Shown here: positions 5,934 through 56,286 of the stretch, in pieces | Layout: each line of letters starts with the position of its first letter | Position numbering within the stretch: position 1 is the stretch's first letter | Assembly (NCBI GenBank): GCA_018823885.1 | Contig: JAHJHG010000006.1 | Location: forward strand, 10,752-74,751 | Source: Patescibacteria group bacterium | GTDB lineage: Bacteria > Patescibacteriota > Microgenomatia > UBA8517 | Direction: 5' to 3' | DNA length: 64,000 nt | Program-made: the position numbers and the translations under genes | The notes under the pieces: generated by a model | What the model was told of the DNA's origin: nothing | The model's database searches: none | What the model saw: only the letters and a program-made list of their open reading frames with translations

Positions 5934-6389
5934 ATGGTTGGTGTTGTTACATTTTGGGAAACTTTTATCGGAGTAGATAATCCAATCTACATTGGAGATA
6001 TATGGGCTAACACCATAAGACCACTTGGTGGTACCCATTTATTTTATGTTGACCAGCAAGGAATAGGAACACCGAGCATAGATGCTTCTATCGTTTCTAA
6101 AACCTATTCTACTTTCCAAGAAGTATTGGATGACAACCCCGATGCAACCTATGTGTTTCTTGAGGCTGAAAGGAGTATTCCAAAAGGTACCGATTTTACT
6201 TACTTAAAAGACTTTGTTCATCCCAAAGAAGACGTCATTTATGTTTTCGGCAAAGATAGTTCTGATGTGTTCACAGAGAACCTGCCACTTGAAGGAAATC
6301 ATGTTGTATCAATTACCACAAATGATAATCTTGTGCTCTGGTCATTAATAACAGTCGGTATCGTTCTGTATGATAGAAAGGTTAAATAA
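5934..6389 (+). CDS. Hypothetical protein, first gene of the beta-helix cluster; the start is uncertain
   Basis: The ORF runs 5670..6389, but its first 180 nt overlap the convergent 747-aa gene. The first in-frame ATG outside that overlap is at 5934 (151 aa). Its stop, TAA, overlaps the ATG of the next gene (taATGg), which suggests translational coupling. Confidence 0.35.
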   Translation: MVGVVTFWETFIGVDNPIYIGDIWANTIRPLGGTHLFYVDQQGIGTPSIDASIVSKTYSTFQEVLDDNPDATYVFLEAERSIPKGTDFTYLKDFVHPKEDVIYVFGKDSSDVFTENLPLEGNHVVSITTNDNLVLWSLITVGIVLYDRKVK

Positions 6390-27624: not shown

Positions 27625-28443
27625 TTAGTTGCTTTCGAGAAGCTTCCAGTTGTCCAAATCGCCTGCTTTGACTTCAAACTTCTGATAGAAGTGACTGTCA
27701 ACATCAAACAGGACAACGTGAACAGTGGTGCAACCAGTTGCTCCGCAGTTGGTTCCACCCGTAGTGGTGCTGGTAACCAATTGCTCGCGAAACCAGTCCT
27801 TGGATACATATGCCCCAGGAGGCATGATGGACCAAGTGGCGTGACCAGGAACGAATTCCACCACCATTGCGGTCATGTTGAGATCAGAATCAACGATCGT
27901 ATCGTCAATCCGCCCGCGAATAAGGACCAAATAATTCAATCCTTTTGCGCCGGGCAAAACCAAGGAAACGCCGTCAACCGTGATTATTCCCTTGCCAAGG
28001 CTAAAGGGAGTAAATCCTCCTTCAGGGACATTAGCAAAATGCTCTGCCTCAACAGAAGGAATTACCCAAGTAGCCGCATCATCCAAGATGGCACCGGGTT
28101 CCGCGATCAACCAGGAACTTTCCTCGTTGAAAACATCGATTGTTTGAACCGGAGTTTGGAAGAGCTCTCCTGCAGGCATTCCGCCAGCAATGAGAGCAAA
28201 CTCAACTGGATCACTTTTTACTATCTCTTCTTTCTCTTCTTCGGCTGGAACTGGTGTTACTGGCGGTAAGGTCGCGGCTTTGAGCTCCTCTGCTAGCTCA
28301 GCAATCGTCGATTTTTTATCTTCGATTTCCGCTTCGATTTCCGCTATTTCGGAAAAAAGGATCACGGCCCAAACAAGCAACACAGTAATTAAAAGAATAC
28401 CAAGAGCCACTCCAATCCACCCAAAAAACTTTTTCCAATTCAT
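27625..28443 (-). CDS. Membrane-anchored hypothetical protein (N-terminal TM, coiled-coil, C-terminal globular domain)
   Basis: The 272-aa ORF begins MNWKKFFGWIGVALGILLITVLLVWAVILF. It is preferred over the overlapping plus-strand ORF 27556..28269, whose translation is low-complexity. Confidence 0.4.
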   Translation of the reverse strand: MNWKKFFGWIGVALGILLITVLLVWAVILFSEIAEIEAEIEDKKSTIAELAEELKAATLPPVTPVPAEEEKEEIVKSDPVEFALIAGGMPAGELFQTPVQTIDVFNEESSWLIAEPGAILDDAATWVIPSVEAEHFANVPEGGFTPFSLGKGIITVDGVSLVLPGAKGLNYLVLIRGRIDDTIVDSDLNMTAMVVEFVPGHATWSIMPPGAYVSKDWFREQLVTSTTTGGTNCGATGCTTVHVVLFDVDSHFYQKFEVKAGDLDNWKLLESN

Positions 28444-29001: not shown

Positions 29002-29739
29002 CTAAATCTCTAAAAGTCTGGCATATTTATAGATCCTAATAGGCGAACTTAAGGTCTCACAGGTATATAAAATCAAGTCTGCAGAGTAATCAGATATTTC
29101 TTCAGCTTCCTCCGTCGCATAGACTTCATAAACATACTTTCTTTGACGCCAAATAATTTCTACTATATCCCCTTCTTTAAGTTTAGGTAGATTAAAAAAT
29201 GAATTTTCCCGCCTAAAAATATTATTCCAAGCCAAATACCCAAATCTGTGAGCAGCCATTATCGTCGGTTTATTTCTGGTATATGGAGTGCCGAAATCAG
29301 AAACTCTCCAAATTCCTTTTTTCAAAGCCTTCTCATAATATTCAAGAGTTGATTCTTGAATTTCCGAATTTACACCAATCGAAGAGATCCTGATTGTATT
29401 TTCAAGAGGCAAAGATGCATCAAACCTTGGCTGATAACCAATATTGCTCACGGTGTTCATCAATCCATTAACTTCATTTGCCTCCGTTTTCGCGAATATT
29501 TTGGAAGCAAACGCAACACCCTGAGTCTTTGTTGCATGCCAGATAGATGGAGCGAAAGAAATAAATAACAATATTGTCCCAATTACAGCTGTTGTTTTTG
29601 CCGCCTTAATCAATAATTCAGAAATCTTTAATGAAAAGCTGTTTGTATCAACAGGTTTTTGCCAAACAAAAATATCACCCGCTGTAGAGGCGCCTTTGTA
29701 CGTGTGAATAAAGACAGTATTTTCCATATATAAATTCAA
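29002..29739 (-). CDS. Sortase family transpeptidase
   Basis: The 245-aa ORF has an N-terminal TM anchor, a conserved His (IMAAHRFG), the catalytic Cys in LILYTC (TLxTC-like), and a downstream Arg (IRIYKYARL). Confidence 0.7.
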   Translation of the reverse strand: MNLYMENTVFIHTYKGASTAGDIFVWQKPVDTNSFSLKISELLIKAAKTTAVIGTILLFISFAPSIWHATKTQGVAFASKIFAKTEANEVNGLMNTVSNIGYQPRFDASLPLENTIRISSIGVNSEIQESTLEYYEKALKKGIWRVSDFGTPYTRNKPTIMAAHRFGYLAWNNIFRRENSFFNLPKLKEGDIVEIIWRQRKYVYEVYATEEAEEISDYSADLILYTCETLSSPIRIYKYARLLEI

Positions 29740-33090: not shown

Positions 33091-33209
33091 GCCCAGCAAT
33101 GAACTATTTTCGCATAGAGTTGCCCCTATACTATCGTCGCCGCTGGTGTGTTTTACTTTCCTGTTCGGAATGGGAAGGAGTAGGACCACACCGCTAAAAT
33201 TACTAGGCT
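33091..33209 (-). rRNA. 5S ribosomal RNA
   Basis: The reverse complement reads GCCTAGTAATTTTAGCGGTGTGGTCCTACTCCTTCCCATTCCGAACAGGAAAGTAAAACACACCAGCGGCGACGATAGTATAGGGG...GCGAAAATAGTTCATTGCTGGGC. This matches the 5S consensus (CCGAAC...GAAAC, terminal helix I). Confidence 0.7.
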
Positions 33210-33289
33210 ATTTTTATGGTTAATAGATTTTCTCTATTAACCACATATGTTAATGTTTTTTGTTCTCTGAAAACTGAAGGGAATGGGTC

Positions 33290-36511
<3,222 letters not shown>

Positions 36512-36538
36512 TTTCCCTTCAGATGTCAAAGAACAAAG

Positions 36539-36613
36539 TGGACCTGACCGGGCTCGAACCGGTGACCTCTACATTGCAAATGTAGCGCTCTTGCCAGCTG
36601 AGCTACAGGCCCG
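36539..36613 (-). tRNA. tRNA-Ala (anticodon TGC)
   Basis: The reverse complement reads GGGCCTGTAGCTCAGCTGGCAAGAGCGCTACATTTGCAATGTAGAGGTCACCGGTTCGAGCCCGGTCAGGTCCA. It has a G3:U70 pair and the anticodon loop TTTGCAA. Confidence 0.85.
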
Positions 36614-36825
36614 AAAAATAATAATATTAATTTTTAAACTAAAAAACCGGCCTTGAAGCCGGTTACATAAAAGAAGCGTATAAACTATCTAGCCACTATC
36701 AATGCCCCCAAGGGCTTGTCTTTGGTTAAATGTTGAGCTTCTCATAAAGTAACTTGCCTCAATCGGCAGAGACTATTATATATAGTAAGAAACAAAGAGT
36801 CAACAGAGGAGAAAGTAGAAGTGTG

Positions 36826-36898
36826 TGGGTCCGGATGGGATCGAACCATCGACCTCTTACTTATCAGGTAAGCGCTCTAGCCACTGAGCTACGGACCC
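36826..36898 (-). tRNA. tRNA-Ile (anticodon GAT)
   Basis: The reverse complement reads GGGTCCGTAGCTCAGTGGCTAGAGCGCTTACCTGATAAGTAAGAGGTCGATGGTTCGATCCCATCCGGACCCA. The anticodon loop is CTGATAA. Confidence 0.85.
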
Positions 36899-36990
36899 TG
36901 GAGCAACCAATAATTTACCATAAATTAGCCTTAAAAACAAACTATTAATATCTGCTACATTTTCAGAAAGCTACCATATATAATAGTTGT

Positions 36991-39210
36991 ATGACGAACT
37001 TAACAACGCTTCTTTTAAAACTTCCACGAAATACTGAAGTTACACCTGAAGCAGCTCAAACATTCCTCTCTGCATTAACACAAATAAATTCAGTTTCCTC
37101 TTTAAGAAAATTATTAGGCACAAAATCACAAGCCTTAGCTTTGGAAATTGTGCTTTTCGATCAACAAATAAGGTTTCAAATAACTTGCGACCGCGACCTG
37201 GTTCCTTTTCTTAAAACACAAATTCAGTCTAACTATCCCCTTGTCCTAATTGAGCAAACACAAGACCCATTAGTAAATAAAAGGCTTGAAATAAAAAAAC
37301 TCTGTCTTGCTAAGGGAAGTTATTACCCAATTGCAACTTTCGAATCATTTCAAGACATTGACCCTCTCTCCTCTGTTCTTTCTGTTTTATCAAAAGGCAA
37401 TCCTGATGAAGTCGGCCTTGTTCAGTTCGCCTTGGAGGCAACAGGTTCTTCTTGGCAAAGAAAAGGGGCTCTTTATGCAGAAAGAGGTACAAAGAATGAA
37501 GATGGTTCTTATTCCCCAAGATCGGACGCAAACATAATAACTGAGAAAATTTCTTACCCAGGTTTCAAGGTCACAATAAGGCTTGCTGCAAACACGAAAC
37601 AAACCCTTAGAGAACTTATATCTAGCTTTGGAGTATTCACAAGAGCTGATGGAAATAGGCTCTCATCGAAGAAAACTTCACAGCTAAAGAAAAAGTCTGC
37701 TCTAGCTTGCCTTTTACAAAGAAAGGTCGTAGATAACCAAATATTAAACATTCAAGAACTGGCAACTATTTGGCATCTTCCAAGCGATAAGATAAAAACC
37801 ACCTCCATTGCTTGGGGAACGTCTGTTCTTTCAGAGCCCCCCGAAAATTTACCTATCGCAATCGATAAGTCAGAAGATGAAAAAAGGGAAATAAACTACT
37901 TTGCCAAAACTCATTTCAAAAACAAAGAAACAATATTTGGTATTGAGACTCCAGACAGAAGACGCCACATATGGACCTTAGGAAAAACAGGTACCGGTAA
38001 ATCCACTCTAATTGCCAACATGGCCATCGATGATCTCAAGAAAGGTCGTGGTTTAGCCGTTATAGATCCCCATGGAGATCTTATTGAAATACTTCTTGAT
38101 TATATTCCGAAGAACAGAATTAACGATGTCATTTACTTCAATCCCGCAGATAGCCAACCTCCAACAATTAATCCTCTTGAGGTTAGAACTCGTGAGGAAG
38201 CAGAACTGGCTGCTTCCGGTCTTCTTTCAATATTCACAAAAATTTGGGCCAATGTCTGGTCCGCACGGATGGAATATATCTTAAGAAACTCATTCCTCAC
38301 TTTAGCGCAAACTCCTAACTCTACTTTGGCGGATGTTTTGAAACTTCTGGCAAATAGAAAATTCAGAGATCAAATCGTAGAAAAAATTGATGACCCAAAT
38401 CTTGTCCACTTCTGGAAAGAAGAATTCGATAAAATGCCGGAAAGACTTCAAAAGGAGGCTATTTCCCCTATTCAGAATAAGGTAGGCCAATTTGTCCTAT
38501 CACCTATGATTCGCGAAATAATCGGTCAACCAAAAGGTTCTTTTAGAATTGACGAGATCATGGATGGCGGAAAAATATTCCTTGCCAATTTATCACAAGG
38601 AAGAATCGGAGAAGATAATGCTAATTTACTTGGCGCCATGTTGATAACGAAAATCCAACTTGCGGCCATGCATCGAGTCGAGATAAGGGAACAGGAAAGA
38701 CGCGATTTCTATCTCTATGTCGATGAGTTCCAGAATTTTGCCACCACATCATTTATAAAAATCCTCTCAGAAGCCAGAAAATACAGACTTAACTTGATGC
38801 TTGCAAACCAATATATTGCTCAAATTCCCGAAGAGGTTCAAAAAGCAATATTAGGAAATATCGGAACAATGATTAGTTTTACCGCCGGTGCGGAAGACGC
38901 GCAAATTCTTCAAAAAGAGTTTTCAGAAGTCTTTACCGAAAACGACCTTGTCAACCTATCACGCTTCCAAGTGGCCATTAAACTTACTATAGATGGGCAA
39001 TCCAACAGACCCTTCTTAGCTCATACTCTGCCTCTTCCTGTCTCAAGAAACCAGAACAGGCCAAAAGTTATTACGGCCTCAAGGGAAAGATGGTCAAAAA
39101 GAGAAAAACCACAACAAGACCTGGAACAAAAGCCATATACACCTAAACAGAAACCATACACACCCAGACATCGACAATACCCACGTAGGAGCAAGTCCCA
39201 TCAAAGATAA
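36991..39210 (+). CDS. VirD4/TraG/TraD-like coupling-protein-type ATPase (FtsK/HerA superfamily) with a basic Pro-rich C-terminal tail
   Basis: The 739-aa ORF has a Walker A motif (LGKTGTGKSTL) and a Walker B motif (FYLYVDEFQNFAT), followed by an ANQY..Q segment typical of TraG/TraD C-terminal domains. It sits inside the 16S-23S spacer on the strand opposite the rRNAs. Confidence 0.6.
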   Translation: MTNLTTLLLKLPRNTEVTPEAAQTFLSALTQINSVSSLRKLLGTKSQALALEIVLFDQQIRFQITCDRDLVPFLKTQIQSNYPLVLIEQTQDPLVNKRLEIKKLCLAKGSYYPIATFESFQDIDPLSSVLSVLSKGNPDEVGLVQFALEATGSSWQRKGALYAERGTKNEDGSYSPRSDANIITEKISYPGFKVTIRLAANTKQTLRELISSFGVFTRADGNRLSSKKTSQLKKKSALACLLQRKVVDNQILNIQELATIWHLPSDKIKTTSIAWGTSVLSEPPENLPIAIDKSEDEKREINYFAKTHFKNKETIFGIETPDRRRHIWTLGKTGTGKSTLIANMAIDDLKKGRGLAVIDPHGDLIEILLDYIPKNRINDVIYFNPADSQPPTINPLEVRTREEAELAASGLLSIFTKIWANVWSARMEYILRNSFLTLAQTPNSTLADVLKLLANRKFRDQIVEKIDDPNLVHFWKEEFDKMPERLQKEAISPIQNKVGQFVLSPMIREIIGQPKGSFRIDEIMDGGKIFLANLSQGRIGEDNANLLGAMLITKIQLAAMHRVEIREQERRDFYLYVDEFQNFATTSFIKILSEARKYRLNLMLANQYIAQIPEEVQKAILGNIGTMISFTAGAEDAQILQKEFSEVFTENDLVNLSRFQVAIKLTIDGQSNRPFLAHTLPLPVSRNQNRPKVITASRERWSKREKPQQDLEQKPYTPKQKPYTPRHRQYPRRSKSHQR

Positions 39211-39255
39211 TTATTAACTTTAATAGTGCTTCCTCTCTTGAATAATCCCATAATC

Positions 39256-39283
39256 TTGCAATATTGCGCATATTTGTTATAAT
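39256..39283 (+). promoter_or_regulatory. Sigma70-like promoter candidate (TTGCAA - 16 nt - TATAAT)
   Basis: TTGCAA is at 39256-39261 and TATAAT at 39278-39283, about 200 nt upstream of the 201-aa secreted-protein gene. Confidence 0.3.
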
Positions 39284-39480
39284 TTTCTCAGTCTTTCCCT
39301 TCTGGCCTATCGCAGGTGAGATGTGGGAAAGATGTAAAGTTCTTTAATAACGGGAGAATATAATCTCCTCGGGACGCAATGGGTACTTAAAACCTTTTTT
39401 GAGTATCTTTTGCGTCTCGGGGGCAAAGGGCAGGAGACGTAAAAATCCAACCATTCTTATCAAAAAGGAGAATAGCAACT

Positions 39481-40086
39481 ATGAAGCGTTGGAAAATTGT
39501 AAGTTTGTTGGCTGTTTTCGCTCTTCTGATCACCGCTGTACCAGTATTTGCCATGGCAGAAAACGGAGCTCCATGGACCGGAGATCCAGATCCATATGCC
39601 TGTAACGTCTATCAGGACTGTTTCTACACAGTAACTGTCTGCATCGATGGTACAACCTACGAAGTAGGTATCTACTACGACCCAGCGACTCAAACCGCTG
39701 CGTACATGGAAGCAGACGCCTTAGGCTGGTCGGATATCGTCCTTACAATCGGCGCCTGTCCATATGTATGCGAAGTGAGACCGCTTTACCGAATGGTCAC
39801 TCTGGTTGATAACGACGCACCTGACTGGTATTTGTATGATGGTCGTTGTTACATTATCATGCACGAAGACGGAACTGTCCCCTCAGTTGATCGCCAGGCC
39901 GAAGTTTGTAGTGTTTGCGAGCATCCTGATTTCATCTATGAAGGAGATGGTCCCGCTCTTTACGACTCCTATGTCGGTGTGGATTGCTATGGCAACTACG
40001 TCTATGCAGATCCTCTGTGGGATCCTGAATGGATCAATCTGGATCCTGACAACATCTGTCACGAAGAATCCTGCATTACCAAATAG
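39481..40086 (+). CDS. Secreted cysteine/aromatic-rich hypothetical protein (short paralog)
   Basis: The 201-aa ORF has a signal peptide (MKRWKIVSLLAVFALLITAVPVFAMA) and 14 Cys. Its C-terminal module (CSVCEHPDFIYEGDG...YDSYVGVDCYGNYVY) resembles the C-terminus of the 695-aa neighbour. The GC content is visibly higher than in flanking DNA. Confidence 0.5.
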   Translation: MKRWKIVSLLAVFALLITAVPVFAMAENGAPWTGDPDPYACNVYQDCFYTVTVCIDGTTYEVGIYYDPATQTAAYMEADALGWSDIVLTIGACPYVCEVRPLYRMVTLVDNDAPDWYLYDGRCYIIMHEDGTVPSVDRQAEVCSVCEHPDFIYEGDGPALYDSYVGVDCYGNYVYADPLWDPEWINLDPDNICHEESCITK

Positions 40087-40208
40087 ATCCGAGGAAGGTG
40101 TCTGTACACTACTGCCCAAAAGGCACCTTCCTGCTCTACCCATTATTCTCCCGTTTTAATTTTTTTTAGATACTTCATGAACCTATAATTTGTAATTTTT
40201 ATCATTTG

Positions 40209-40217
40209 TGCTATAAT
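40209..40217 (+). promoter_or_regulatory. Extended -10 promoter element (TGCTATAAT) upstream of the 695-aa gene
   Basis: The element TGnTATAAT sits in an AT-rich 300-bp intergenic region. Confidence 0.3.
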
Positions 40218-40455
40218 TCTTCAAGAAATTTCCTACTCGCTTATTGTAAATGTAGTATGGAAAAATTCTAATTAAATTTTGTTCTTTAACAACAAGATAA
40301 TACCTTTTTGCGCTTCTTGCGCAAAAAAATGTAAATTGTCAAAAAACTCATAACAAAAGGAGGAAAAGCATGACAAAAGGATAGCCGCGTCTTCTGTCCT
40401 ATGGGGCTACTTCCCCAAATAGACGTAATCGTTTTTCAAAAAAGGAGAAAGTACG

Positions 40456-42543
40456 ATGAAGAAACTTTTTGTTATCGCATTGACACTGTTACTATTGTTA
40501 GTAGCAGCGGTCGCCGTATCAGCGGCCACTCCCCTCCCAGTATGTCCAGAAAGTGGAGGCGGCTGGACCAGGGTTAATAACGGAAATTGGACTGAAGTCA
40601 CGGGCGCGACTAACTACTGCTTTAAGTTCGGGAATGGTGCAGCGCCTGGAGCCGGACCATCATGCGCACCAGAACCTGCGCTCTACGGCTCGAGCTACCC
40701 GGGAGCAACACCCGCAAGTCGGTGTCCCCTAAATCACTGGGCATACTTTGTTCCCCCGGAACCTCAGTGTGGACCGAACGAGTGGTCAACTGAAGAGGGG
40801 TGTATACCCAAAACCGACATCTGTCATGCAACCGGTAGTTGGATTCACCCATTCCAACTGATCTCCCCTTCCAATATCGGCATTCTCATGGGGCATGTTG
40901 GTCCAGGCCATCAAAGTGGTGAGGACATCATCCCGCCGATCCCCTTCTATCTGCCAGCAGGTCAAAATTGGAATACGGTTGGGCAGGCTATCTTCAACAA
41001 CGGATGTGAATTGCCTGAGCCTCATGACTACGAGCTTGTGTTTGACTATCGTAACGAATGCGATGGTAATAATTACTATCGCATCATGCTGACGGATTTT
41101 GGTCAGTATGTCACCACTCTCTATCACAGTGGTTACTTCGTATGGTCTGAGCCGTTCTTGCTCGAAAACAAAACGTTTGGACCGTTTGATCTTGGCGAGT
41201 TTGGGACATTCCCTGCTGTAACGCTGGATGAACCCTTGGATTGCCAAGTCGAACATGAACTTGCGTTCGTGTATACGAATAAGTGCGTCGGTTGGTCCTA
41301 TGGGTATGTACTCGATGGCGTCGAAACAATCATCGCCTCTGGTGAATGGGTTGATCCATATGGTGAGCCGGAAAAGATCTTTGTAAGTTTTGAGGTCTTC
41401 CTACCCGCAGGTGAGATTGCAAATCGCAGTCCCATCTTCGGCCCGTGGTACCTTGTGGAACCAGCCGATTGCCAGATCTTCCGCACGTACAAGGCTCATC
41501 AAGCATATCTTGCGGATAGTTGCGAGGGAATCCATCGAGTGATCAACTTGTACGAAGGCCCAGCCAGTGATCCGTATGATGTATTGGTTGGCACTCTCTA
41601 CAACGAGACGGTTCTGTTCTCGGATCCTTTCAATCTCGAGACCATTCCGGCCGTCACCGTTGATGTCCCGGCAGCGTATGGCCCAGACTACACCTTCGCC
41701 GCTATGGACGAACCATCAACCTGTTACAGCACCTGTGATCTGACCACTCCGGTGGTACAAGATCCTGTTTGGAACCCGTGGTCACCATGGGTATACAATC
41801 CTATCAGCGGTCTTGAGGAAAGTTTCCACACAGGAACACAGACAACCTTATTCATGGACAGTGTCGATGAAGGGTATGTCTGTGGCTCATCGGTTGAAGA
41901 GTTATTCGAATCTCGAACACGGGAAGTGGATTACTCGCTAACCGTCGTTGGTTCCGGAGACTGCTTCAACTGGGAGTACGTCCCTGCTTTCACCAAGGGT
42001 GGTGAAATGACCGTCGTTGGCGATCTGACAGGCGAATGGCTGGACATCTATGGGCCTGAAACCGCTCCAGTACCAACCGTCACTGTTGTATGGCCAAGCG
42101 GCTATGCTCTGACAGTTACACCTGAAGCCGTTGTCAAAGATGTTGGCTGTATTCAATGCCGAATCACGCCTTACTACCCACAAGCGTCATACCATGACGC
42201 AGCTGCTCCTGGCGTTTACTGGCAAGGTCCATTCGGTCTAGGAGCTGGTGTGTGTAGCGTTATTCATCCTGAAGGCCAAGTACCTTCAGCTGAGCGCGTA
42301 ACCACGATCTGCTCCCTCTGCCCCGATGTGTTTGAAGGTGGTTATATCTATCAGGTTAACCACATGTTCTATGACGGCTGGGTCTACAAGGTCCAGTGCT
42401 ACGGTCAAGAACCTCACTACACGTACATGGGGTACAACTGGGACGCATACGTCAGAATTGGCGAATACACCACAGAAGGTGAACGCCTCTCCTGCCGCGT
42501 TCAAGGTTGTGCGGACTGGATTCACGAAAACATGGTGGAATAG
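40456..42543 (+). CDS. Secreted cysteine/aromatic-rich hypothetical protein (long paralog)
   Basis: The 695-aa ORF has a signal peptide (MKKLFVIALTLLLLLVAAVAVSAA), many Cys, Trp, Tyr and Pro residues, and a C-terminal module (CSLCPDVFEGGYIYQVNHMFYDGWVYKVQCYG...) related to the 201-aa protein. The GC content is higher than in flanking genes. Confidence 0.55.
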   Translation: MKKLFVIALTLLLLLVAAVAVSAATPLPVCPESGGGWTRVNNGNWTEVTGATNYCFKFGNGAAPGAGPSCAPEPALYGSSYPGATPASRCPLNHWAYFVPPEPQCGPNEWSTEEGCIPKTDICHATGSWIHPFQLISPSNIGILMGHVGPGHQSGEDIIPPIPFYLPAGQNWNTVGQAIFNNGCELPEPHDYELVFDYRNECDGNNYYRIMLTDFGQYVTTLYHSGYFVWSEPFLLENKTFGPFDLGEFGTFPAVTLDEPLDCQVEHELAFVYTNKCVGWSYGYVLDGVETIIASGEWVDPYGEPEKIFVSFEVFLPAGEIANRSPIFGPWYLVEPADCQIFRTYKAHQAYLADSCEGIHRVINLYEGPASDPYDVLVGTLYNETVLFSDPFNLETIPAVTVDVPAAYGPDYTFAAMDEPSTCYSTCDLTTPVVQDPVWNPWSPWVYNPISGLEESFHTGTQTTLFMDSVDEGYVCGSSVEELFESRTREVDYSLTVVGSGDCFNWEYVPAFTKGGEMTVVGDLTGEWLDIYGPETAPVPTVTVVWPSGYALTVTPEAVVKDVGCIQCRITPYYPQASYHDAAAPGVYWQGPFGLGAGVCSVIHPEGQVPSAERVTTICSLCPDVFEGGYIYQVNHMFYDGWVYKVQCYGQEPHYTYMGYNWDAYVRIGEYTTEGERLSCRVQGCADWIHENMVE

Positions 42544-42567
42544 CTCTGAGATAGCTTAGCCATGTGT

Positions 42568-42609
42568 GAGGTGTCACTCAACTATGTACAACCGAGTGGC
42601 ACCTCATTT
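42568..42609 (+). terminator. Hairpin terminator candidate after the 695-aa gene
   Basis: A 12-bp stem (GAGGTGTCACTC / GAGTGGCACCTC, one G.U pair) is followed by ATTTCC. Confidence 0.35.
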
Positions 42610-42753
42610 CCAAATTACGACAATTACATTCAAAATCAATACAACAAATTATATTTATCGCAAATATGAATATTTGTTTTTTGGTTTTACGGTATTATCT
42701 TGTTTCGCGTCTACTGAATATCAGTACTGAAGAGTCTTCCAAAAGGCAAGACG

Positions 42754-42790
42754 AAACGCAAAAACCCGCTTTAAAAAAGCGGGTTTCTTT
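42754..42790. terminator. Bidirectional rho-independent terminator (AAAAACCCGCTTTAAAAAAGCGGGTTTCTTTGTTTT)
   Basis: A perfect 8-bp GC-rich stem is flanked by an A-tract and a T-tract. It is located about 120 nt beyond the 16S 3' end on the minus strand and about 210 nt beyond the 695-aa gene on the plus strand. Confidence 0.6.
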
Positions 42791-42910
42791 GTTTTAACAA
42801 TCAAAATACGACTAGAAGCGGGTTCGGTTTTTTTACAGTTTAACCGTGACCTAAAAGCTGGGTGTATACCTACCCTCAGATAAATCTGAAAGCAGTCGTG
42901 ATACTCCTTA

Positions 42911-44372
42911 GAAAGGAGGTGATCCATCCGCTCCTTCCAGAACGGATACCTTGTTACGACTTAATTCTTGTCGCTGGTCTCACCTTCCCCCGATTCAATC
43001 GAGGTTCGGGTGCTTCCAACTTCACTAACTTGACGGGCGGTGTGTACAAGACCTGAGAACGTATTCACCGCGGCTTGGCTGATCCGCGATTACTACCAAT
43101 TCCACGTTCATGAGGGCGAATTGCAGCCCTCAATCCCCACTGAGAAGCCGTTTGATGGGATTAGCTCCGTGTTACCACTTGGCAACCCATTGTCGGCTCC
43201 ATTGTAGCATGTGTGTAGCCCTGGACATAAGGGCCATGCTGACTTAACGTCGTCCCCGCCTTCCTCCCGAGAATGACTCGGGCAGTCCCGTATGAATATT
43301 CAACATACGGCGAGGGTTGCGCTCGTTACCCCACTGAAGGGAACACCTCACGACACGAGCTGACGATAGCCATGCAGCACCTGTTCTAGTACCTTCGAAA
43401 GAGTCACCATTTCTGGTGATGTGCAACTAGTATGTCAAGTCCAGGTAAGGTTCTTCGGTTCGTCTCGAATTAAACCACATGCTCCACTGGTTGTGCAGGT
43501 CCCCGTCAATTCCTTTGAGTTTTAGTCTTGCGACCGTACTCCCCAGGCGGCTCGCTTAACGCGTTAGCTTGCGAGACGGAAAAATAAATTCCCCATCCCT
43601 AGCGAGCATCGTTTACGGCTAGGACTACAGCGGTCTCTAATCGCTTTCGCTACCCTAGCTTTCGTTCCTCAGCGTCAAGAAATGCCTAGTTACCCGCCTT
43701 CGCCCTTGGTGTTCTTGTCGATATCAACGGATTTCACCCCTACACCGACAATTCCAGTAACCCCGACATTCTTCAATTCTGGTAGTATTATGCCCCTTCC
43801 CGAGGTTAAGCCCCGGTCTTTGAAACATAACTTACCAAAAAGCCTACGAACTCTTTACGCCCAATAAATCCGGACAACGCTTGCACCCTACGTATTACCG
43901 CAGCTGCTGGCACGTAGTTAGCGGGTGCTTATTCTCCAGTCGGTCTCCCTTCTGGCAAAAGAGGTTTACAACCCTAAGGCCTTCATCCCTCACGCGGCGT
44001 CGCGGCGTCAGACTTTCGTCCATTGCGCACGATTCCCGGTTGCTGCCACCCGTAGGTGTAAGGCCCGTGTCTCAGTGCCTTTCTGGGGGAACACGCTCTC
44101 ACGCCCCCTACCCGTCGTAGCCTTGGTAGGCTATTACCCTACCAACAAGCTGATGGGCCGCAGGCTCCTCCCTCGGCGGGCAGTTACGCCCTTTCATCCT
44201 TGGATCTTATGCGGTATTAACTACTCTTTCGAGTAGGTATTCCACACCAAGGGGTAGATTCCTACGTGTTACTCAGCCGTTCGCGACTTACTATCCGAAG
44301 ATAGCTCGTTCCACTTGCATGCCTAAGGCACGCCGCCAGCGTTCGTCCTGGGCCAGGATCAAACCCTCAAAT
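42911..44372 (-). rRNA. 16S ribosomal RNA
   Basis: The 3' end reads ...GGATCACCTCCTTTC (complement at 42911-42924) and the 5' end reads GAGGGTTTGATCCTGGCCCAGGACGAACGCTGGCGGCGTGCC. The internal conserved blocks (GTGCCAGCAGCTGCGGTAATAC, etc.) are present. Confidence 0.9.
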
Positions 44373-44477
44373 AGTGACGAGTTTTGAACCTAAACATGCA
44401 TAAGCACGAATAAGTATTCGTCTTACGCTTCCAGTCATATTTTGATTGTCAAAGTGCGCACATTTTTGAGACTAAAA

Positions 44478-44530
44478 AACCGCCCAGATGGACGGCTTCA
44501 CAAGGCTTTTTAAGCCATCTGGTATTTCGT
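44478..44530 (-). terminator. Rho-independent terminator on the minus strand upstream of the 16S promoter region
   Basis: On the minus strand the sequence reads CCAGATGG-CTTAAAAAGCCTTGTGAAGCCGTC-CATCTGGG followed by CGGTTTTTT. Confidence 0.45.
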
Positions 44531-44613
44531 CTTACATCATGTGCATCGTTATTATAACACACGATTCAATGGGGTCAACGAGAAGTAAATAATTGTTTTT
44601 GCAGCCCTCCAAC

Positions 44614-49866: not shown

Positions 49867-50616
49867 TTATTGACTTTGAAGGGCTACGTCTATTGCCTGC
49901 TTCATGGAATCAAAAGGAAGTGCTCCCGGTATAAGCCAAGCTTCACCTTTATCATTTAATATAATATTTCCAGGCGTTCCATTAACTCCTGCGGCCATTC
50001 CACCTTGATATTGGTTTTCAACCTTCTCATCGTTGTTACCAGCCTCAAGACAATTTGCAAATTCACTTGCGTCAAGACCAATATTTGCGGCCACTTTCTT
50101 AAGTCCGGCATCAGTAAGGTTCGTTGTTTGGTCTGCAAATACTCCACCTATAAAGGCCCAAAAACTTTCGTCTCCCCCTTTCTCTGCAGCGCACTCGGAC
50201 GCTATGGCAGCGGGACGGGCTCTATCATGAAATTCCAGAGGAAAATGCCTATACACCCAAGCAATATCGTCTCCATATTCATCTTTTAGCTGTTGCGCCG
50301 TGGCATGGAAAGTCGAACAATACGGACACTCAAGATCTGAGTATTCAATTAGAATAACCTTTGCGTCTTTGTTTCCTTTAATATGGTCTTCGTCGCTTAT
50401 GGGTACAATATTTTTTACCTGATCCTCTGTTAGTTTGCCATCTGCTGGGGGCGGCACAACATCGGCCGGCTGAGCAACACCCTCTACTTTTCCTCCCTCA
50501 AGAGTGCTCACTTTTTGCCAAAGAATCCCAACTGCAAAAGCAAGTATTACTGTCGCCACAAGAAGAATCGGGGTCAATTTTTCAAAGGTGCCTTCTTTGG
50601 TGGACTTTTCTGGCAT
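49867..50616 (-). CDS. DsbA-like thiol:disulfide oxidoreductase, membrane-anchored
   Basis: The 249-aa ORF has an N-terminal TM anchor and a thioredoxin-fold active site, CPYC (YSDLECPYCSTFH). Confidence 0.7.
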   Translation of the reverse strand: MPEKSTKEGTFEKLTPILLVATVILAFAVGILWQKVSTLEGGKVEGVAQPADVVPPPADGKLTEDQVKNIVPISDEDHIKGNKDAKVILIEYSDLECPYCSTFHATAQQLKDEYGDDIAWVYRHFPLEFHDRARPAAIASECAAEKGGDESFWAFIGGVFADQTTNLTDAGLKKVAANIGLDASEFANCLEAGNNDEKVENQYQGGMAAGVNGTPGNIILNDKGEAWLIPGALPFDSMKQAIDVALQSQ

Positions 50617-50640: not shown

Positions 50641-51642
50641 CTATTTGTCAAGGGTTGTCTCTTGCTTCTTATTCCCCTGTTTTTCGTCCAAATACTTTAA
50701 GGCTTCCATCCCCGCCATACAACCAAAACCTGCGGCCGTTATCGCCTGACGGTAATGATAATCATGAACGTCACCAGCGACAAATACTCCATCTGTGCTG
50801 GTTTTAGTATGATCATTAACAACAATATAGCCTTTTTCATCAAGCTCGACCTTGCCTTTAAAAATAGCGGTTGAAGGGGTGTGCCCTACGGCTACAAAAA
50901 CTCCGTCTACTACCAGTTCGCTTTTTTCCCCTGTCTTGGTGTTTTCAAGAAGTATTTTTTCTAGTTTTTGTTCTCCAACAAACTCTTTTACTTGAGTATC
51001 CCAAATTACTTTAATTTTTTTATTATCTTTCACCTTTTTCTGCATGGCCGCCGAGGCCCTAAATTCTTCTCTCCTGTGGACAATGGTTATGGAATTTGAA
51101 TATTTCGTAAGAACCAAGGCTTCTTCCATTGCAGAATCCCCTCCTCCAATGACAGCCGTGTCTTTGTCTTTAAAAAATGGAGCATCACATGGAGCACAAG
51201 ATGAAACTCCTCTTCCACGCAATCTGTCTTCACCTGGTACTCCAAGCCATTTAGTCTCTGCTCCAGTGGCGATAATTACCGATTTTGCTAGGTATTTTGT
51301 TTCTCCAACTGTCAATTCAAAATATTCTTTACTAAAATCAACGGCCTCTACATTTTTCTCGATGAATTCCGCTCCAAACCTCTCACTTTGCTTCCTCATT
51401 TTTTGCATCAAATCAGGACCCTCAATTCCTTCATGAAAGCCTGGATAATTATCTACTTCTGTTGTTAGCATTAATTGACCACCCCACTTTTCTCCTCCTA
51501 ATATCAAAGTCGAAGCAGCTCCTCTTGTTGTGTAAATAGCGGCTGTCAATGAAGCGGGTCCGGAACCTATTACTGCGACATCCCAAGGTTCTGTGAAGTT
51601 TTTCGGTTTTTGTGCAAATTCAATCTTTTGCTTTTCATCCAT
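50641..51642 (-). CDS. trxB: Thioredoxin-disulfide reductase
   Basis: The 333-aa ORF has FAD-binding (VAVIGSGPASLTAAIY) and NADPH-binding (AVIGGGDSAMEEA) GxGxxG/A motifs. Its redox-active pair is CAPC (SCAPCDAPFF). Confidence 0.85.
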   Translation of the reverse strand: MDEKQKIEFAQKPKNFTEPWDVAVIGSGPASLTAAIYTTRGAASTLILGGEKWGGQLMLTTEVDNYPGFHEGIEGPDLMQKMRKQSERFGAEFIEKNVEAVDFSKEYFELTVGETKYLAKSVIIATGAETKWLGVPGEDRLRGRGVSSCAPCDAPFFKDKDTAVIGGGDSAMEEALVLTKYSNSITIVHRREEFRASAAMQKKVKDNKKIKVIWDTQVKEFVGEQKLEKILLENTKTGEKSELVVDGVFVAVGHTPSTAIFKGKVELDEKGYIVVNDHTKTSTDGVFVAGDVHDYHYRQAITAAGFGCMAGMEALKYLDEKQGNKKQETTLDK

Positions 51643-51996: not shown

Positions 51997-52368
51997 TTAA
52001 ATACCTTTTTTAATAAGGTCTTCAAAAACTTTTTTTCCTGCAAATCCAATTTGACGTCCTATTTCGTTGCCGTCTTTAATAAGAACTGTTGTCGGAATAG
52101 ACATAACATCATAATCGGCAGCAGATTTTTGATTCTCATCTATATTGAGTTTAACAATCTGAATCTTACCTTCGTATTCCTCAGCAAGTTCATCTAATAC
52201 AGGACCAGCCATTCTGCAAGGACCGCACCAAGGAGCCCAAAAATCAACCAAAACAGGAATCGTCGATTTTAAGACCTTCTCATCAAAAACTGCATCTGTT
52301 ATTTCCATCGTTGCCATACGGTTCTCACTATACCCAGCAAAACCACGCCCAGTCAATACGCAAAGCAC
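51997..52368 (-). CDS. trxA: Thioredoxin
   Basis: The 123-aa ORF carries the WCGPC active site (FWAPWCGPCRM) in a thioredoxin fold. Confidence 0.85.
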   Translation of the reverse strand: MLCVLTGRGFAGYSENRMATMEITDAVFDEKVLKSTIPVLVDFWAPWCGPCRMAGPVLDELAEEYEGKIQIVKLNIDENQKSAADYDVMSIPTTVLIKDGNEIGRQIGFAGKKVFEDLIKKGI

Positions 52369-53259: not shown

Positions 53260-54237
53260 TCAGTCCGTAAACACCTGGACAAACATTTTGCCGTATATTC
53301 CATTATCAATAACTCCAATGCCAACTTTATTAAACTTAGGCTCTAAAATATTTTCTCTGTGCCCCTCTGAATTCATTAATCCTACGTGTGCCGATGACAC
53401 AGTCGGAGCTAGAGCTAAGTTCTCCCCCGCATAATCGTAATTAATTCCTGCTTCCGTCAATCTATCTCCAGCATCTTTTCCCTCAGGCGAAACATGGCCA
53501 AAATATTTTCTTTCCCACATGTCAGTGGCGTGCACCCTTGCTACCGAAACAATTTCTGTATCCCAGCTGAGCTTATTCAAACCGGCCGCCTCTCTTTCTT
53601 CATTCACCAATTTGAACATTTCCCCTTCAGACGCTTCATCAACTAGTAATTCTTGGGTGGCAACTTCAAGAGCAACTCTTTCCTTGCTTTCAGGCTTAAT
53701 GGTGAAATAAGTAAGAGAATCTTCTATTACTCCCCCAAATATTTCGTTTATCTTACTTTCAATTCCCGCTGTTTGTTCTAAGATGTACCCACCTATCTTT
53801 GACTCTGTCGTGCTTAGTTTAATCTTGGGCGAAACAGGAAGACCAAGAACAAGAGTTAAAATAAAGGCAACAATAATTAACCCTTCACCCAAGGCAGGTA
53901 AAATTGCCAATATTTTTTGACCTTTTATTTTTCTATATTTTTTAGGGAGCTTTGTAATCGCATGACCAAATAAATAACCCAACAACGCTTCTGTCAATAT
54001 CGCTGTTATTAAAAAACCTAAGGCATTTGAAGCTGATGGAGAGAGCGAAAAATTAGCTCGAAGCAATCCGGCTGTAAATTGATAGGCTCGGAAAGAAATG
54101 AGAATCGAGCCCAGAAAAGAAAAGAAATCTGCAAGTATTACCCAAAATCCATGTCTTACTCCTTCGGTTACAAAAAACAATATTATGGCGATTATGAGTA
54201 AATCAACCCAGTTCCCATTTAGGCTTAATATATTCAT
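53260..54237 (-). CDS. Membrane protein with N-terminal CvpA-like TM domain and C-terminal CAP/SCP (YkwD-like) domain
   Basis: The 325-aa ORF has 4 TM helices. Its C-terminal segment (HATDMWERKYFGHVSPEG...GENLALAP...GHRENIL) matches CAP-domain motifs. Confidence 0.55.
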   Translation of the reverse strand: MNILSLNGNWVDLLIIAIILFFVTEGVRHGFWVILADFFSFLGSILISFRAYQFTAGLLRANFSLSPSASNALGFLITAILTEALLGYLFGHAITKLPKKYRKIKGQKILAILPALGEGLIIVAFILTLVLGLPVSPKIKLSTTESKIGGYILEQTAGIESKINEIFGGVIEDSLTYFTIKPESKERVALEVATQELLVDEASEGEMFKLVNEEREAAGLNKLSWDTEIVSVARVHATDMWERKYFGHVSPEGKDAGDRLTEAGINYDYAGENLALAPTVSSAHVGLMNSEGHRENILEPKFNKVGIGVIDNGIYGKMFVQVFTD

Positions 54238-54551: not shown

Positions 54552-55750
54552 TTGTCTTGAAGTTTTCTCTTATACACAGCAATCAATGGCAGCGTGCTCA
54601 AAACTGCGGCAATTATAAAACCTTCTTCCAATCTGCCACCATATAACATCCAGACAATAAGTAATATTAAAGACAACAGCCCACCTATTGTAATGGCTGT
54701 TTCTCTAAAAAGAATCGCTCTCGCGGACCCGCCTTCAACTCCTTTTTTATAAGTTAAGGTATTTAAAGGCAGTTCAACCATTCTTTGACCGAAATTCCAA
54801 ACACTGTCCGCTAAGATAAAGATTGGTAAAGATTTTTTAATAATCCTAATAATCCAAGAGAGTGTAACCAAAGGTACTCCGATAGAAATAATCTTTCTTT
54901 CCCCTTGTTTATCAACCCATCTCCCCAAAACTAAAGAGAAAATCGCTGCAAAAAATATTGATACCGACACTACTGCTCCCAGGCTGATGACCTGCCCAAA
55001 AAATCTAAACAGAAACACAGGCCAAATAACCATATAAAGAATAGTTTCAGCTGATGATCCAATATAGGCAAGTGAAATGGATTTATGGCTCTTTATCAAT
55101 GAAATCACCTCAGAAAACTTAATGTCTCTCCTTTGCCTTCTTTCGTGATCTTTCCCTAATAAAAGAAGGGCGATACCCATAAAAACTCCTGAGAATATAT
55201 ATAGAGAGTTAAAGCCCAAAAAACTGATAAGTAAGGCTCCCAGGAAAGGAGATAAAACAGCAACGATCGTTTCTAAAAACCTCGCTTCACCTATATTAAG
55301 ACCAAAATGATCACCATCCCCCTCCTTAATAAAATACCCGTGATATCCCCACCAGAAAAAGCCGACATGAATCCCCCAAAAAATTGCCGCTGGGATAAGT
55401 AAATACGGACACAGAGATGTAAAAACTAAACTTAAGATAAATATAACAAAAGGCACAAATGATGCCCAAATCATGCTCTTAAAACCAATCTTCTGGCTTA
55501 AATTTTCAGAAAAGGAAAGACTGATAGTCTTCGACAATATGGCAATTACGTAATACAAAAGGACAACAATAATCGCATAACGTGAGTCCAAACCATATTT
55601 TTGCCCAATTTCATAGATATATATTGGAGAAAAAATAGAAATAAGTGTAACGGCCACTCTTCGCGCCACACCACTTAAAAGAAGAGGCTTTAATTCATTT
55701 TTACGATAATTAAAAAAATTAAAGTTATTTGGAAGATGCCAAGTAAGCAT
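54548..55750 (-). CDS. Polytopic membrane protein (possible MFS-type transporter)
   Basis: The 400-aa ORF has about 10-12 TM helices. The assignment is by architecture only. Confidence 0.4.
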   Translation of the reverse strand: MLTWHLPNNFNFFNYRKNELKPLLLSGVARRVAVTLISIFSPIYIYEIGQKYGLDSRYAIIVVLLYYVIAILSKTISLSFSENLSQKIGFKSMIWASFVPFVIFILSLVFTSLCPYLLIPAAIFWGIHVGFFWWGYHGYFIKEGDGDHFGLNIGEARFLETIVAVLSPFLGALLISFLGFNSLYIFSGVFMGIALLLLGKDHERRQRRDIKFSEVISLIKSHKSISLAYIGSSAETILYMVIWPVFLFRFFGQVISLGAVVSVSIFFAAIFSLVLGRWVDKQGERKIISIGVPLVTLSWIIRIIKKSLPIFILADSVWNFGQRMVELPLNTLTYKKGVEGGSARAILFRETAITIGGLLSLILLIVWMLYGGRLEEGFIIAAVLSTLPLIAVYKRKLQDK

Positions 55751-56286
55751 TATTTGTTTTTAACCATTAACGATATAACTTCTCTATTTATTTTAACAAT
55801 CACGGGAGTAATAATTTTGACTTCTTCTTCTGTAAAATCTTGCAAAACATATGCTTCTCCGGAGATCTTGTTCTCCGCACTTCGGTTATCTACACCAATC
55901 CTTACCCTCCAAAAATCAGTTTTCCCTATTTTATCCTCAATTGACTTGATCCCTTTATGAAGTTTCGGACCTTTTCCTTTTTGAATTTTATAGTCTCCCA
56001 AAGCAATATCTAAATCATCGTGAATAACCCATAAGTCAGAGCTTTTTATTTTATACTGATCAATTAATTTCTTCACAGCTTCGCCTGATTGATTCATAAA
56101 AGTTTGAGGTTTGGCCAACATAAATAATCCTTCGTGTTTGATTATTAATGACTGAAATTTCTTAACCGAGGACCATTCTTCTTCAAACAGTTGGTTCGCC
56201 ATTTCATCAACAACTAAATAACCGCTGTTGTGGCGATTGTTTCTGTGTTTATCCCCCGGATTACCTAGGCCTACTATTAATTTCAT
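55750..56286 (-). CDS. pth: Peptidyl-tRNA hydrolase (canonical)
   Basis: The 178-aa ORF reads LIVGLGNPGDKHRNNRHNSGYLVVD (Asn10, His20), FMNQSG, VIHDDLD, HKG and FWRVRIGV. Confidence 0.9.
   Translation of the reverse strand: MKLIVGLGNPGDKHRNNRHNSGYLVVDEMANQLFEEEWSSVKKFQSLIIKHEGLFMLAKPQTFMNQSGEAVKKLIDQYKIKSSDLWVIHDDLDIALGDYKIQKGKGPKLHKGIKSIEDKIGKTDFWRVRIGVDNRSAENKISGEAYVLQDFTEEEVKIITPVIVKINREVISLMVKNK

Follow-up and report, generated by a model that had tools for sequence, protein, structure and literature searches.

Variable loci for exported surface proteins with swappable terminal domains are a known theme. The closest described systems are the polymorphic toxins of the contact-dependent inhibition (CDI) and Rhs types, together with phage receptor-binding proteins and bacteriocins, the LPXTG/MSCRAMM-like and DUF11-type adhesins of Gram-positive bacteria, and the vsp/vlp loci of Mycoplasma. 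In the latter, a host-dependent bacterium with a small genome has changing exported surface proteins at a fixed chromosomal site. Here we describe a locus which may be likened to these systems. It is found in a Patescibacteria group bacterium (assembly GCA_018823885.1, contig JAHJHG010000006.1, positions 10,752 to 74,751), in a stretch of 64,000 nucleotides (nt) which we call the window. Two adjacent genes code for secreted, Cys-rich proteins of 201 and 695 amino acids (aa), the small and the large protein, which end in related modules with eight Cys. Both are present in NCBI, identical, as hypothetical proteins KKH23_02740 and KKH23_02745 of a Patescibacteria group bacterium. Our tentative reading, to which we give somewhat less than even confidence, is that they are extracellular binding proteins which fold oxidatively, are variable and have a C-terminal head that can be swapped; this function is one that we infer.

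The agreement with each known system is partial. The conserved N-terminal scaffold, the breakpoint at a module junction and the horizontal exchange are also features of CDI/Rhs toxins, phage receptor-binding proteins and bacteriocins. On the other hand, we see neither an immunity gene nor a toxin fold, no relation appears at the level of sequence or PHROGs, and no relative is found in phage records, IMG/VR viral contigs or plasmids. The Gram-positive adhesins are similar in their signal peptide, in their tandem beta-rich repeats framed by Cys and in the Pro/Thr-rich (PT) linkers of relatives of our proteins. A module running C-H-A-T…DIIPP also links the family to wall-anchored adhesins (DUF11 in Leucobacter, LPXTG in Saccharimonadales). 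The window proteins differ from these adhesins: they have no LPXTG or membrane tail, they end in the eight-Cys module and their Cys content is far higher than typical. As for Mycoplasma vsp/vlp, the window proteins differ in not being lipoproteins, neither a site-specific invertase nor a phase-variable repeat is seen here, and the variation is seen between lineages, by module exchange.

The gene on the left of the pair codes for a VirD4-like ATPase. Most VirD4 homologues of Patescibacteria are encoded away from virB4 and may be exapted for other functions, and PrgB-like adhesins were not detected in the phylum, according to a published survey (PMC12102498). Our VirD4-like gene is one of these abundant orphans. 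The pairing with exported Cys-rich proteins and a 16S rRNA gene which we observe does not appear in the passages of that survey considered here.

What is new is the superfamily of eight-Cys domains and its confinement to a few ultra-small lineages, the slot between a VirD4-like gene and a 16S rRNA gene, a leader RNA and a persistent excess of G+C at third codon positions (GC3). A first-pass annotation, made from the sequence alone, had pointed to the two proteins. It missed the rRNA operon setting, the conserved synteny with a VirD4-like gene, the 5' leader common to both genes and the family-wide extent of the GC anomaly.

A rare mosaic family with an eight-cysteine module

The first-pass annotation described the genes as a pair of paralogs with a common C-terminal module. 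The module is indeed shared. In a BLASTP comparison, aa 97-181 of the small protein match aa 568-663 of its larger neighbour (35% identity, E 4e-8), and all eight Cys are in register: C93/97/123/143/146/169/193/198 in the small protein and C565/568/600/619/622/648/680/685 in the large one. Modules have a size of about 105-130 aa and belong to several subtypes, the two main ones being L and S. Type L (CIQCKIT..YPMA.Y.D..AP..YWQGPFG…CSLCPD…) closes the large protein of the window. Type S (CYVCEV.PLYRMVTLID.DAPDWYWG…CSVC.HPDF.YEAD…) closes the small one; elsewhere it closes large mosaic proteins, and it is absent from the other nine small-family members retrieved.

The description as paralogs is imprecise and finds no support. 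Besides differing in subtype, the two modules are only 35% identical to each other, while the large-protein module is 79-92% identical to those of its orthologues (92% in P0002; relatives are numbered P for proteins and L for loci). The small-protein module is 49-63% identical to C-termini of large proteins, the closest being a 391-aa protein (P0042, 63%). As each module resembles those of other genomes far more than that of its neighbour, we conclude that there was no local duplication. A local tandem duplication is rejected because the two are not mutual closest relatives. The small protein is a recombinant, in which a conserved N-module is joined to a C-module of type S.

The presence of each Cys was scored in 27 C-modules. 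All eight are found in 15 of them; Cys3 and Cys4 are lost together in two modules and are the only Cys retained in two. Since they are lost or kept as a pair, disulfides are supported. Zinc-binding CxxC knuckles are rejected, because Cys3 and Cys4 covary as a pair across both motifs. The other invariant positions are Y574, Y588, W662, P585, P610, G650 and a single Arg (R614). The early remark that no catalytic motif is recognizable agrees with this list: invariant residues are Cys, aromatic, Gly and Pro, with one Arg and no catalytic dyad or triad.

The family is rare. An exhaustive HMMER profile search with the C-module (E <= 1e-3) matched 45 clusters among 1.84 billion cluster representatives, one of which, the 2148-aa repeat protein P0059, is probably spurious. 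In all 44 credible matches the module is C-terminal, behind varied N-terminal parts which include PT-rich linkers. An index of 5.8 billion proteins has 15 homologues of the large protein and 10 of the small one. The scan of GTDB genomes matched a single representative, a WWE3 metagenome-assembled genome. The few members with a name are all Patescibacteria.

We found no match to a well-known housekeeping family in Pfam, NCBIfam, PHROGs or PDB sequences. In fact, scans of the first three collections with both proteins and their relatives gave no match of any kind; the sole one listed, Actino_peptide, is at chance level (E 0.12). Nothing was retrieved from PDB sequences with the large protein, the profile of the C-module or that of the small family as query. 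No match was found by tblastn in phage and plasmid collections, nor in IMG/VR viral contigs scanned with the small N-module and repeat C.

Large-family relatives may possess or lack entire repeats, with EPxxC at the boundaries, and their N- and C-termini come in alternative forms; the family is therefore a mosaic. For example, P0007, P0008 and P0012 bear other C-termini. The repeats have 60-85 aa each, are bounded by EPxxC … xxCxGW and are predicted to be beta-rich, with low model confidence and with no Pfam Ig-type or fold match. Self-BLAST does not detect them in the large protein; they are visible only by pattern and family alignment. Repeat C (aa 340-423) is nearly invariant across the large family and is the most conserved part there. 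The module which precedes the repeats, CHATGS…NPF…GHVGPGHQxGxDIIPP…GQNW…NGCE, is distinct from the CHAT protease domain. It has three copies in a wall-anchored DUF11 protein of Leucobacter and one in an LPXTG-anchored Saccharimonadales protein.

In the small family, the N-module (PWTGDPDPYACN..DC.WTV.VCI.G.TYEVGIYYDPAT…, four Cys) is very conserved. That of the window is 74% identical to P0017. The small gene of locus L011 shares this N-module (74% aa identity) and has a different C-half. C-halves are variable, with a common core C-x-[IV]-I-…-P-S-V-x-R-…-C which corresponds to the Cys3-to-Cys4 segment of the eight-Cys module.

Another motif, (V)CP(E/Q)GG(D)W…(V/Y)…C(Y/V)K(A/G)G, recurs near the N-terminus of several exported proteins of the slot, some of them PT-rich with a membrane tail. 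It has no Pfam match and is found at 40525-40767 of the window, in P0010 and P0039, at 2048-3849 of L017 and at 3460-5130 of L020.

Secretion of both proteins, another early proposal, is upheld by Sec-type signal peptides read from the sequence, with a K/R n-region, a hydrophobic core and AxA. They are predicted to end at …VPVFA, before MAENG, and at …AVSA, before ATPLP. A hydrophobic signal region is found at the N-terminus of about 40 of the 44 full-length family members; the others look truncated or have a start which was mis-called. Each gene is preceded by a strong AAGGAG ribosome-binding site (RBS). Ten pairwise comparisons of the large gene gave dN/dS values of 0.12-0.22, which indicate real genes under purifying selection and lead us to reject a non-coding or pseudogene artefact. 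Cys amounts to 5.5% of the small protein and 3.6% of the large one, compared with 0.5 +/- 0.6% in the other 43 open reading frames (ORFs) of the window; W+Y amounts to 11.9% and 9.3%, compared with 4.6 +/- 1.9%. Both proteins are thus Cys-rich, as had been claimed, but the small one has 11 Cys instead of 14 (25 in the large one).

The strictly C-terminal position of the module, behind very different N-terminal parts and sometimes after PT-rich linkers, suggests another role. It might hold the protein non-covalently to the wall or S-layer of the cell which makes it, in the manner of SLH, GW and type IX secretion C-terminal domains, and the N-terminal parts would carry the function. The window proteins lack any other anchor, and the invariant aromatic residues and Arg (Y574, W662, R614) would suit polymer binding. 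However, the module is highly variable and is swapped between near-identical genes, which is unusual for a domain that must fit its own envelope. A PROSITE-type lipobox pattern matches seven relatives, and in five of them (P0003, P0009, P0042, P0050 and P0060) it stands at the end of the signal peptide, so a second, C-terminal anchor would be redundant there. The matches in P0026 and P0032 are discounted, as they lie about 12 residues past the predicted cleavage site. Lipobox-like signal peptides would place the C-module of the five relatives distal to the membrane. Besides, in the large family repeat C is more conserved than the C-module. We regard a self-anchoring module as unlikely.

A conserved slot, a shared leader RNA and exchange between lineages

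The VirD4-like gene lies 5' of family genes, on the same strand, in at least seven related genomes (window, L011, L013/L014, L016, L017, L018 and L020). A convergent 16S rRNA gene lies 3' in four (window, L012, L013/L014 and L015). VirD4-like proteins of these genomes are 70-93% identical to that of the window, and their 16S genes are 88-92% identical. Between both borders, gene content varies. The VirD4-like gene is followed by a small gene and another signal-peptide gene in L011, by a large gene and the convergent 16S in L013/L014, and by a small gene and another leader in L016. In L017 it is followed by a 167-aa gene, a small gene and two PT-rich CPQGGDW proteins, in L018 by a small gene and a protein with CHAT… and a PT linker, and in L020 by a large gene and a 556-aa Cys-rich protein. 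A large gene precedes the convergent 16S in L012, while L015 has a small gene, a 391-aa exported protein and the convergent 16S.

Family genes are also found outside this slot, between recA and the rpsI operon in L005 and with other neighbours in L001, L008, L009 and L010. Since the family genes at these places stand singly, linkage to the VirD4-like gene is strong in one clade but is not a requirement.

Three local details were observed. Homology between the window (36977) and L011 (1023) starts only 14 nt 5' of the VirD4-like start codon; on the other side of this rearrangement breakpoint, the window has tRNA-Ile and 23S, L011 a GT87-like gene. The 16S gene of L015 (3469-5833) is split by an insertion of about 630 nt, with a 199-aa ORF (4500-5099, - strand, GC 0.33) which is a candidate for a homing-endonuclease-like protein. 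In L008 (659-2274), a type S member appears as two overlapping ORFs (659-1549 and 1534-2274, both with GC 0.51), which may be due to a frameshift, a pseudogene or an assembly error.

The order VirD4-like, family gene is kept in seven lineages, which raises the question of whether the proteins work with the ATPase. They might be its extracellular partners, as mating or contact adhesins, or substrates of ATPase-driven translocation of DNA or protein. The possible exaptation of orphan VirD4 homologues, and the fact that PrgB-like adhesins were not detected in the phylum, as reported in PMC12102498, would be in line with this. The VirD4-like protein has Pfam matches to TrwB_AAD_bind (2.8e-12), DUF87 and TraG-D_C. 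Nevertheless, proteins with Sec signal peptides would not be expected to leave through a type IV channel. Each gene has a promoter and a leader to itself, and there are members with no VirD4-like neighbour (L005, L001, L008, L009). No other type IV secretion system (T4SS) gene adjoins the slot. The VirD4-like gene (GC 0.395) is host-like in composition and the slot genes are not. Compared with PrgB-like T4SS adhesins, we find only an orphan VirD4-like gene next to the pair and no homology to any named family. The synteny is real, yet it does not define T4SS adhesins or substrates. A coupling with the ATPase seems distinctly unlikely to us.

Small-family leaders have a common order in seven loci: extended -10, two-tier stem-loop, invariant box AGTTCTTTAAnAAC(G/A)GGAGAA, 23-bp hairpin, repeat of its 5' arm and RBS. 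The two leaders of the window are about 190-230 nt long, and the -10 box with its upstream TG is kept in most of 13 aligned leaders. In large-gene leaders the 5' stem-loop and box recur, and the hairpin that comes next is short and of another kind, also with compensatory changes; box and hairpin are conserved in L013, L001, L010, L020 and L019. The general form of the box, which lies between the 5' stem-loop and the hairpin, is CTTTAACAAC(R)(R)GA(K)AA, or CUUUAACAAC in short. Leaders of this type are found 5' of small-family, large-family and other slot genes in the window, L001, L005, L010, L011, L013 and L015-L020. An ACAGGAU core present in some of them resembles a CsrA site.

The structure is well supported. 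In an alignment of six small-gene loci, which leaves out L018 although it shows the same elements, RNAalifold finds 48 pairs, 15 of them with compensatory changes. Paired cells amount to 91.3%, whereas slid controls have 41-56%, and the observed values are not attained in any of 500 shuffles. A covariance model (R1), trained only on the seven small-gene leaders and run over both strands of 176 kb, scores 81.9 bits at the small-gene leader of the window. Besides its training sequences it matches eight others, and nothing more at E <= 1. These are the large-gene leaders of the window (40225-40304, E 2.7e-4), L010, L001, L019, L013 and L020 and, in L016 and L019, the leaders of the slot gene that comes next. 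The strict box pattern is confined to such leaders in 256 kb, save one probable chance match. Rfam gave no leader match at gathering thresholds, and only chance-level ones at E <= 10 in 39200-40470. A common cis element plus a common protein module suggest that the two genes of the window are part of one regulated set.

Modules are exchanged between architectures and between lineages within this family set. For example, the VirD4-like proteins of the window and L011 are 93% identical, and DNA homology extends through the small N-module and ends at 39761, which is the module junction; the C-halves differ. The 16S genes of the window and L012 are 89.6% identical (10.4% different), yet the synonymous divergence (dS) of the large gene is 0.41, while the VirD4-like gene is synonymously saturated between comparable lineages. 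L012 and L013 are closer in 16S than the window and L012, yet their large genes are more divergent. In the comparison of the window with L012, patches of 92-93% nt identity alternate along the large gene with others of 76-78%. With respect to the relatives compared, synonymous identity in repeat C is saturated (0.36-0.58 identical codons). The spacer between large gene and 16S is the least conserved segment, with only 57-65% identity between relatives. Since the patches of high identity lie inside the gene and the spacer is so divergent, exchange is intragenic and not the transfer of a block anchored on rRNA; the exchange of a whole cassette anchored on 16S is rejected for the same reason. The disagreement between gene and 16S, the patchiness and the breakpoint at a junction fit repeated recombination between lineages among family members. 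A diversity-generating retroelement target is rejected, as there is no reverse transcriptase among window ORFs and no direct repeat longer than 22 nt in 36400-44600.

We also observed that the last 60 codons or so of the large gene (42358-42543) are unusually conserved at synonymous sites, with 0.67-0.92 identical codons with respect to all five relatives. This could be due to recent conversion or to a constraint at the nucleotide level at the 3' end of the gene.

A conserved N-terminal scaffold with alternative C-termini, in proteins which are secreted and disulfide-stabilized and whose genes are horizontally exchanged, recalls polymorphic toxins or bacteriocin-like effectors. The variable C-module would then be a toxic domain for competitors or hosts. 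Here the surroundings speak against it. No immunity-like gene is present: the 368-nt spacer before 16S has only unconserved ORFs of 35-54 aa and is as divergent in relatives as indicated above, and there is no ORF of note between the small and large genes. Neither Pfam, NCBIfam nor PDB gave a toxin-family match, the invariant residues include no catalytic dyad or triad, and none of the 45 clusters which contain the module has other parts of a toxin system. A toxic function is very improbable. Among the roles listed by the first-pass annotation, effector, toxin or adhesin, the toxin is therefore the weakest, with no immunity-like ORF and no enzyme-like residues; a putative adhesin-like binding role is the best fit.

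Base composition and features of the window

Both genes differ from their neighbours in composition, as had been suggested by eye. The difference is real, as it did not vanish when computed; the large gene shows it very strongly, the small one moderately. Their GC is 0.480 (small) and 0.513 (large), compared with 0.391 +/- 0.034 in the other ORFs, and their GC3 0.470 and 0.514, compared with 0.338 +/- 0.049; they take ranks 1 and 2 among 45 window ORFs for both values. Codon usage also differs, with an excess of G/C-ending codons, given the amino acid composition, of z = 9.2 in the large gene (rank 1 of 45) and z = 3.4 in the small one (rank 4). Intergenic DNA flanking both genes is host-like and AT-rich (GC 0.34-0.38). 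A raised GC3 given the amino acids, comparable to that of the small gene, is also found in tatC (15763-16506, + strand, z 4.7) and in an unannotated gene for a 272-aa membrane-anchored protein (27625-28443, - strand, z 4.0).

The GC anomaly is a trait of the whole family. It is found in every low-GC context examined, about ten loci (L001, L005, L008, L010, L011, L012, L016, L017, L018 and L020). For example, the GC of the family gene and of its neighbours or contig is 0.51 and 0.36 in L012, 0.49 and 0.37 in L016, 0.49 and 0.36 in L005, 0.48 and 0.38 in L010, and 0.51 and 0.40 in L008.

This distribution bears on a simpler explanation, a single recent acquisition from a GC-richer donor, in which the genes would be passengers with no special role. 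The first two ranks in GC and GC3 within the window would be expected in that case, and a low dS with respect to a lineage whose 16S has diverged by 10% does indicate transfer. However, the anomaly recurs in every host examined, including syntenic copies beside a synonymously saturated VirD4-like gene. The adjoining promoters and leaders are AT-rich and conserved along with the genes, purifying selection is evident, and no integrase, transposase, phage or plasmid relative was found. We consider a one-off acquisition very unlikely. GC-biased gene conversion predicts a persistent GC3 excess in highly recombining bacterial genes (PMC4450053). Frequent recombination of this kind, continuing exchange from a GC-richer pool, or both, probably are the best explanation of the excess.

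The coordinates of the locus are given in Table 1. The rRNA gene set is split (33091-44374): 6 kb separate 16S from tRNA-Ile, tRNA-Ala, 23S and 5S. The rRNA genes are on the - strand, and the gap holds three protein genes on the + strand, the VirD4-like, small and large ones. A split set is not unusual by itself, as the rRNA genes of Patescibacteria are reportedly often unlinked (10.1101/705046). The 23S gene contains a group I intron at 34307-34536, - strand (Rfam RF00028, 65.8 bits).

Table 1. Position of the genes, RNA elements and protein modules described in the text.
Feature	Position	Strand	Remarks
Sortase gene	29002-29739		
23S rRNA gene	33287-36508	-	contains group I intron
VirD4/TraG-like coupling-protein ATPase gene	36991..39210	+	orphan, 739 aa; conserved left border of variable slot
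Small gene, promoter-like site	39256..39283	+	TTGCAA, 16 nt spacer, TG-n-TATAAT; sigma-70-like, extended -10
Small gene, structured leader	39291..39480	+	two-tier stem-loop 39291-39333
Small gene, leader box	39338-39358		AGTTCTTTAATAACGGGAGAA
Small gene, 23-bp leader hairpin	39365-39423		repeat of hairpin 5' arm GGAGACGT at 39433-39440, then RBS AAGGAG
Small secreted protein	39481..40086	+	201 aa, 11 Cys
Small protein, signal peptide and N-module			signal peptide aa 1-24; N-module aa ~25-96, PWTGDPDPYACN…, 4 Cys, conserved
Small protein, type S eight-Cys C-module	39757-40083		aa 93-201
Large gene, promoter-like site	40190..40217	+	TTGTAA, 16 nt spacer, TG-n-TATAAT; sigma-70-like, extended -10
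Large gene, leader	40225..40455	+	stem-loop ~40227-40266; box TGTTCTTTAACAACAAGATAA at 40280-40300; RBS AAGGAG
Large gene, short leader hairpin	40305-40327		TTTTTGCGC-TTCTT-GCGCAAAAA
Large secreted mosaic protein	40456..42543	+	695 aa, 25 Cys
Large protein, signal peptide and N-region			signal peptide aa 1-23; Cys-containing N-region aa 24-104, CPxGGxW… motif
Large protein, C-H-A-T…DIIPP module	40768-41022		aa ~105-189
Large protein, Cys-framed beta-rich repeats A, B, C	41023-41724		aa 190-423
Large protein, W-rich module D and repeat E			D aa 424-503; E aa 504-564
Large protein, type L eight-Cys C-module	42148-42540		aa 565-695
Terminator-like hairpin	42762..42786	+	between large gene and convergent 16S; inverted repeat I6
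16S processing stem	42793-42820 paired with 44426-44453		inverted repeat I1
16S rRNA gene	42912..44374	-	convergent with large gene, right border of slot; Rfam RF00177, 1404.8 bits
16S promoter-like site	44578-44551		own to 16S gene
DsbA-like gene	49867-50616		
TrxB	50641-51642		
TrxA	51997-52368		

The remainder of the window consists of ordinary genes of the candidate phyla radiation, including those for a sortase, a DsbA-like protein, TrxB and TrxA. No integrase, transposase or reverse transcriptase is found among window ORFs. Three large ORFs of 703-983 aa (6389-8500, 9128-12076 and 24562-27513) have no Pfam match and may code for lineage-specific envelope proteins; the one with 982 aa is also rather GC-rich (0.452). 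There are two peptidyl-tRNA hydrolase-like genes, a divergent one at 13970-14512 (E 1.4e-16) and another at 55750-56286 (3.6e-49). The gene at 53260-54237 is a fusion of a colicin V production (CvpA) domain and a CAP/cysteine-rich secretory protein domain.

Possible function and significance of the locus

The reading that we favor, binding proteins with a swappable head, may be described as follows. After Sec export, the DsbA-like oxidoreductase would form the disulfides, the Cys3-Cys4 pair being the conserved core. The proteins would act outside the cell as adhesin- or lectin-like binding proteins. The C-terminal module would be a specificity head; in the large protein the beta-rich repeats would serve as its stalk, and the small protein would carry it on the compact N-module. 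Recombination among family members, by which heads and repeats are swapped, would diversify the targets which can be bound, most plausibly surfaces of host or partner cells, and the shared leader may put the gene set under common post-transcriptional control. A surface location is suggested by the C-H-A-T…DIIPP module shared with wall-anchored proteins, the stalk-like repeats, the PT linkers of relatives and the five lipobox-type N-termini. The DsbA, TrxB and TrxA genes, which the first-pass annotation had cited in favor of disulfide-stabilized extracellular proteins, are present but provide only weak corroboration, since they are 7-10 kb distant and ordinary housekeeping genes.

Several points weigh against this reading. 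Binding is something that we infer, and the candidate role in host contact is extrapolated from the episymbiotic lifestyle of cultivated Patescibacteria. Both proteins have an odd number of Cys. They end in …CADWIHENMVE and …CHEESCITK: LPXTG, C-terminal transmembrane segment and lipobox are absent from both, as is a complete sorting signal (LPXTG, hydrophobic segment and basic tail) in spite of the sortase gene of the window. With no recognizable anchor, they could be freely released. Taxonomy is known for only four members: two from the 'Patescibacteria group', one WWE3 and one Saccharimonadales-type relative. The GC3 excess in a syntenic gene could alternatively be due to selection on codon usage. 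AlphaFold 2 models have a mean pLDDT of 54 (small) and 48 (large), the latter being confident only at aa 341-420, 490-560 and 570-670. Foldseek gave no credible match in PDB or BFVD, with the small model also compared to PDB (TM-scores < 0.15, with rmsd mostly of tens of angstroms over long alignments). Phage tail-fibre names which topped the fold search are artefacts of extended low-confidence beta structure. With models of low confidence, structure prediction and fold search were unhelpful.

A wider proposal is rather unlikely in our opinion. The locus would be a surface-protein cassette system specific to Patescibacteria, in which each cassette consists of promoter, a structured leader RNA not described before and mosaic coding sequence, and is recombined between distant lineages. 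The recombination load would drive the GC3 excess by biased gene conversion, the eight-Cys head would determine host range and the VirD4-like ATPase would take part in the contact process.

Patescibacteria are a large share of bacterial diversity, and the cultivated ones live attached to host cells. To our knowledge, the proteins which mediate or specify this contact are almost unknown. The locus yields a candidate set of contact proteins, with a rare eight-Cys terminal domain which is swapped between lineages. The slot between the VirD4-like and 16S genes allows such genes to be located by synteny, and the leader RNA, which is not in Rfam, marks a co-regulated set of exported proteins. Finally, the family is a natural case for asking why some genes stay GC3-rich in AT-rich genomes, whether by biased gene conversion, by continuing transfer or by codon selection.

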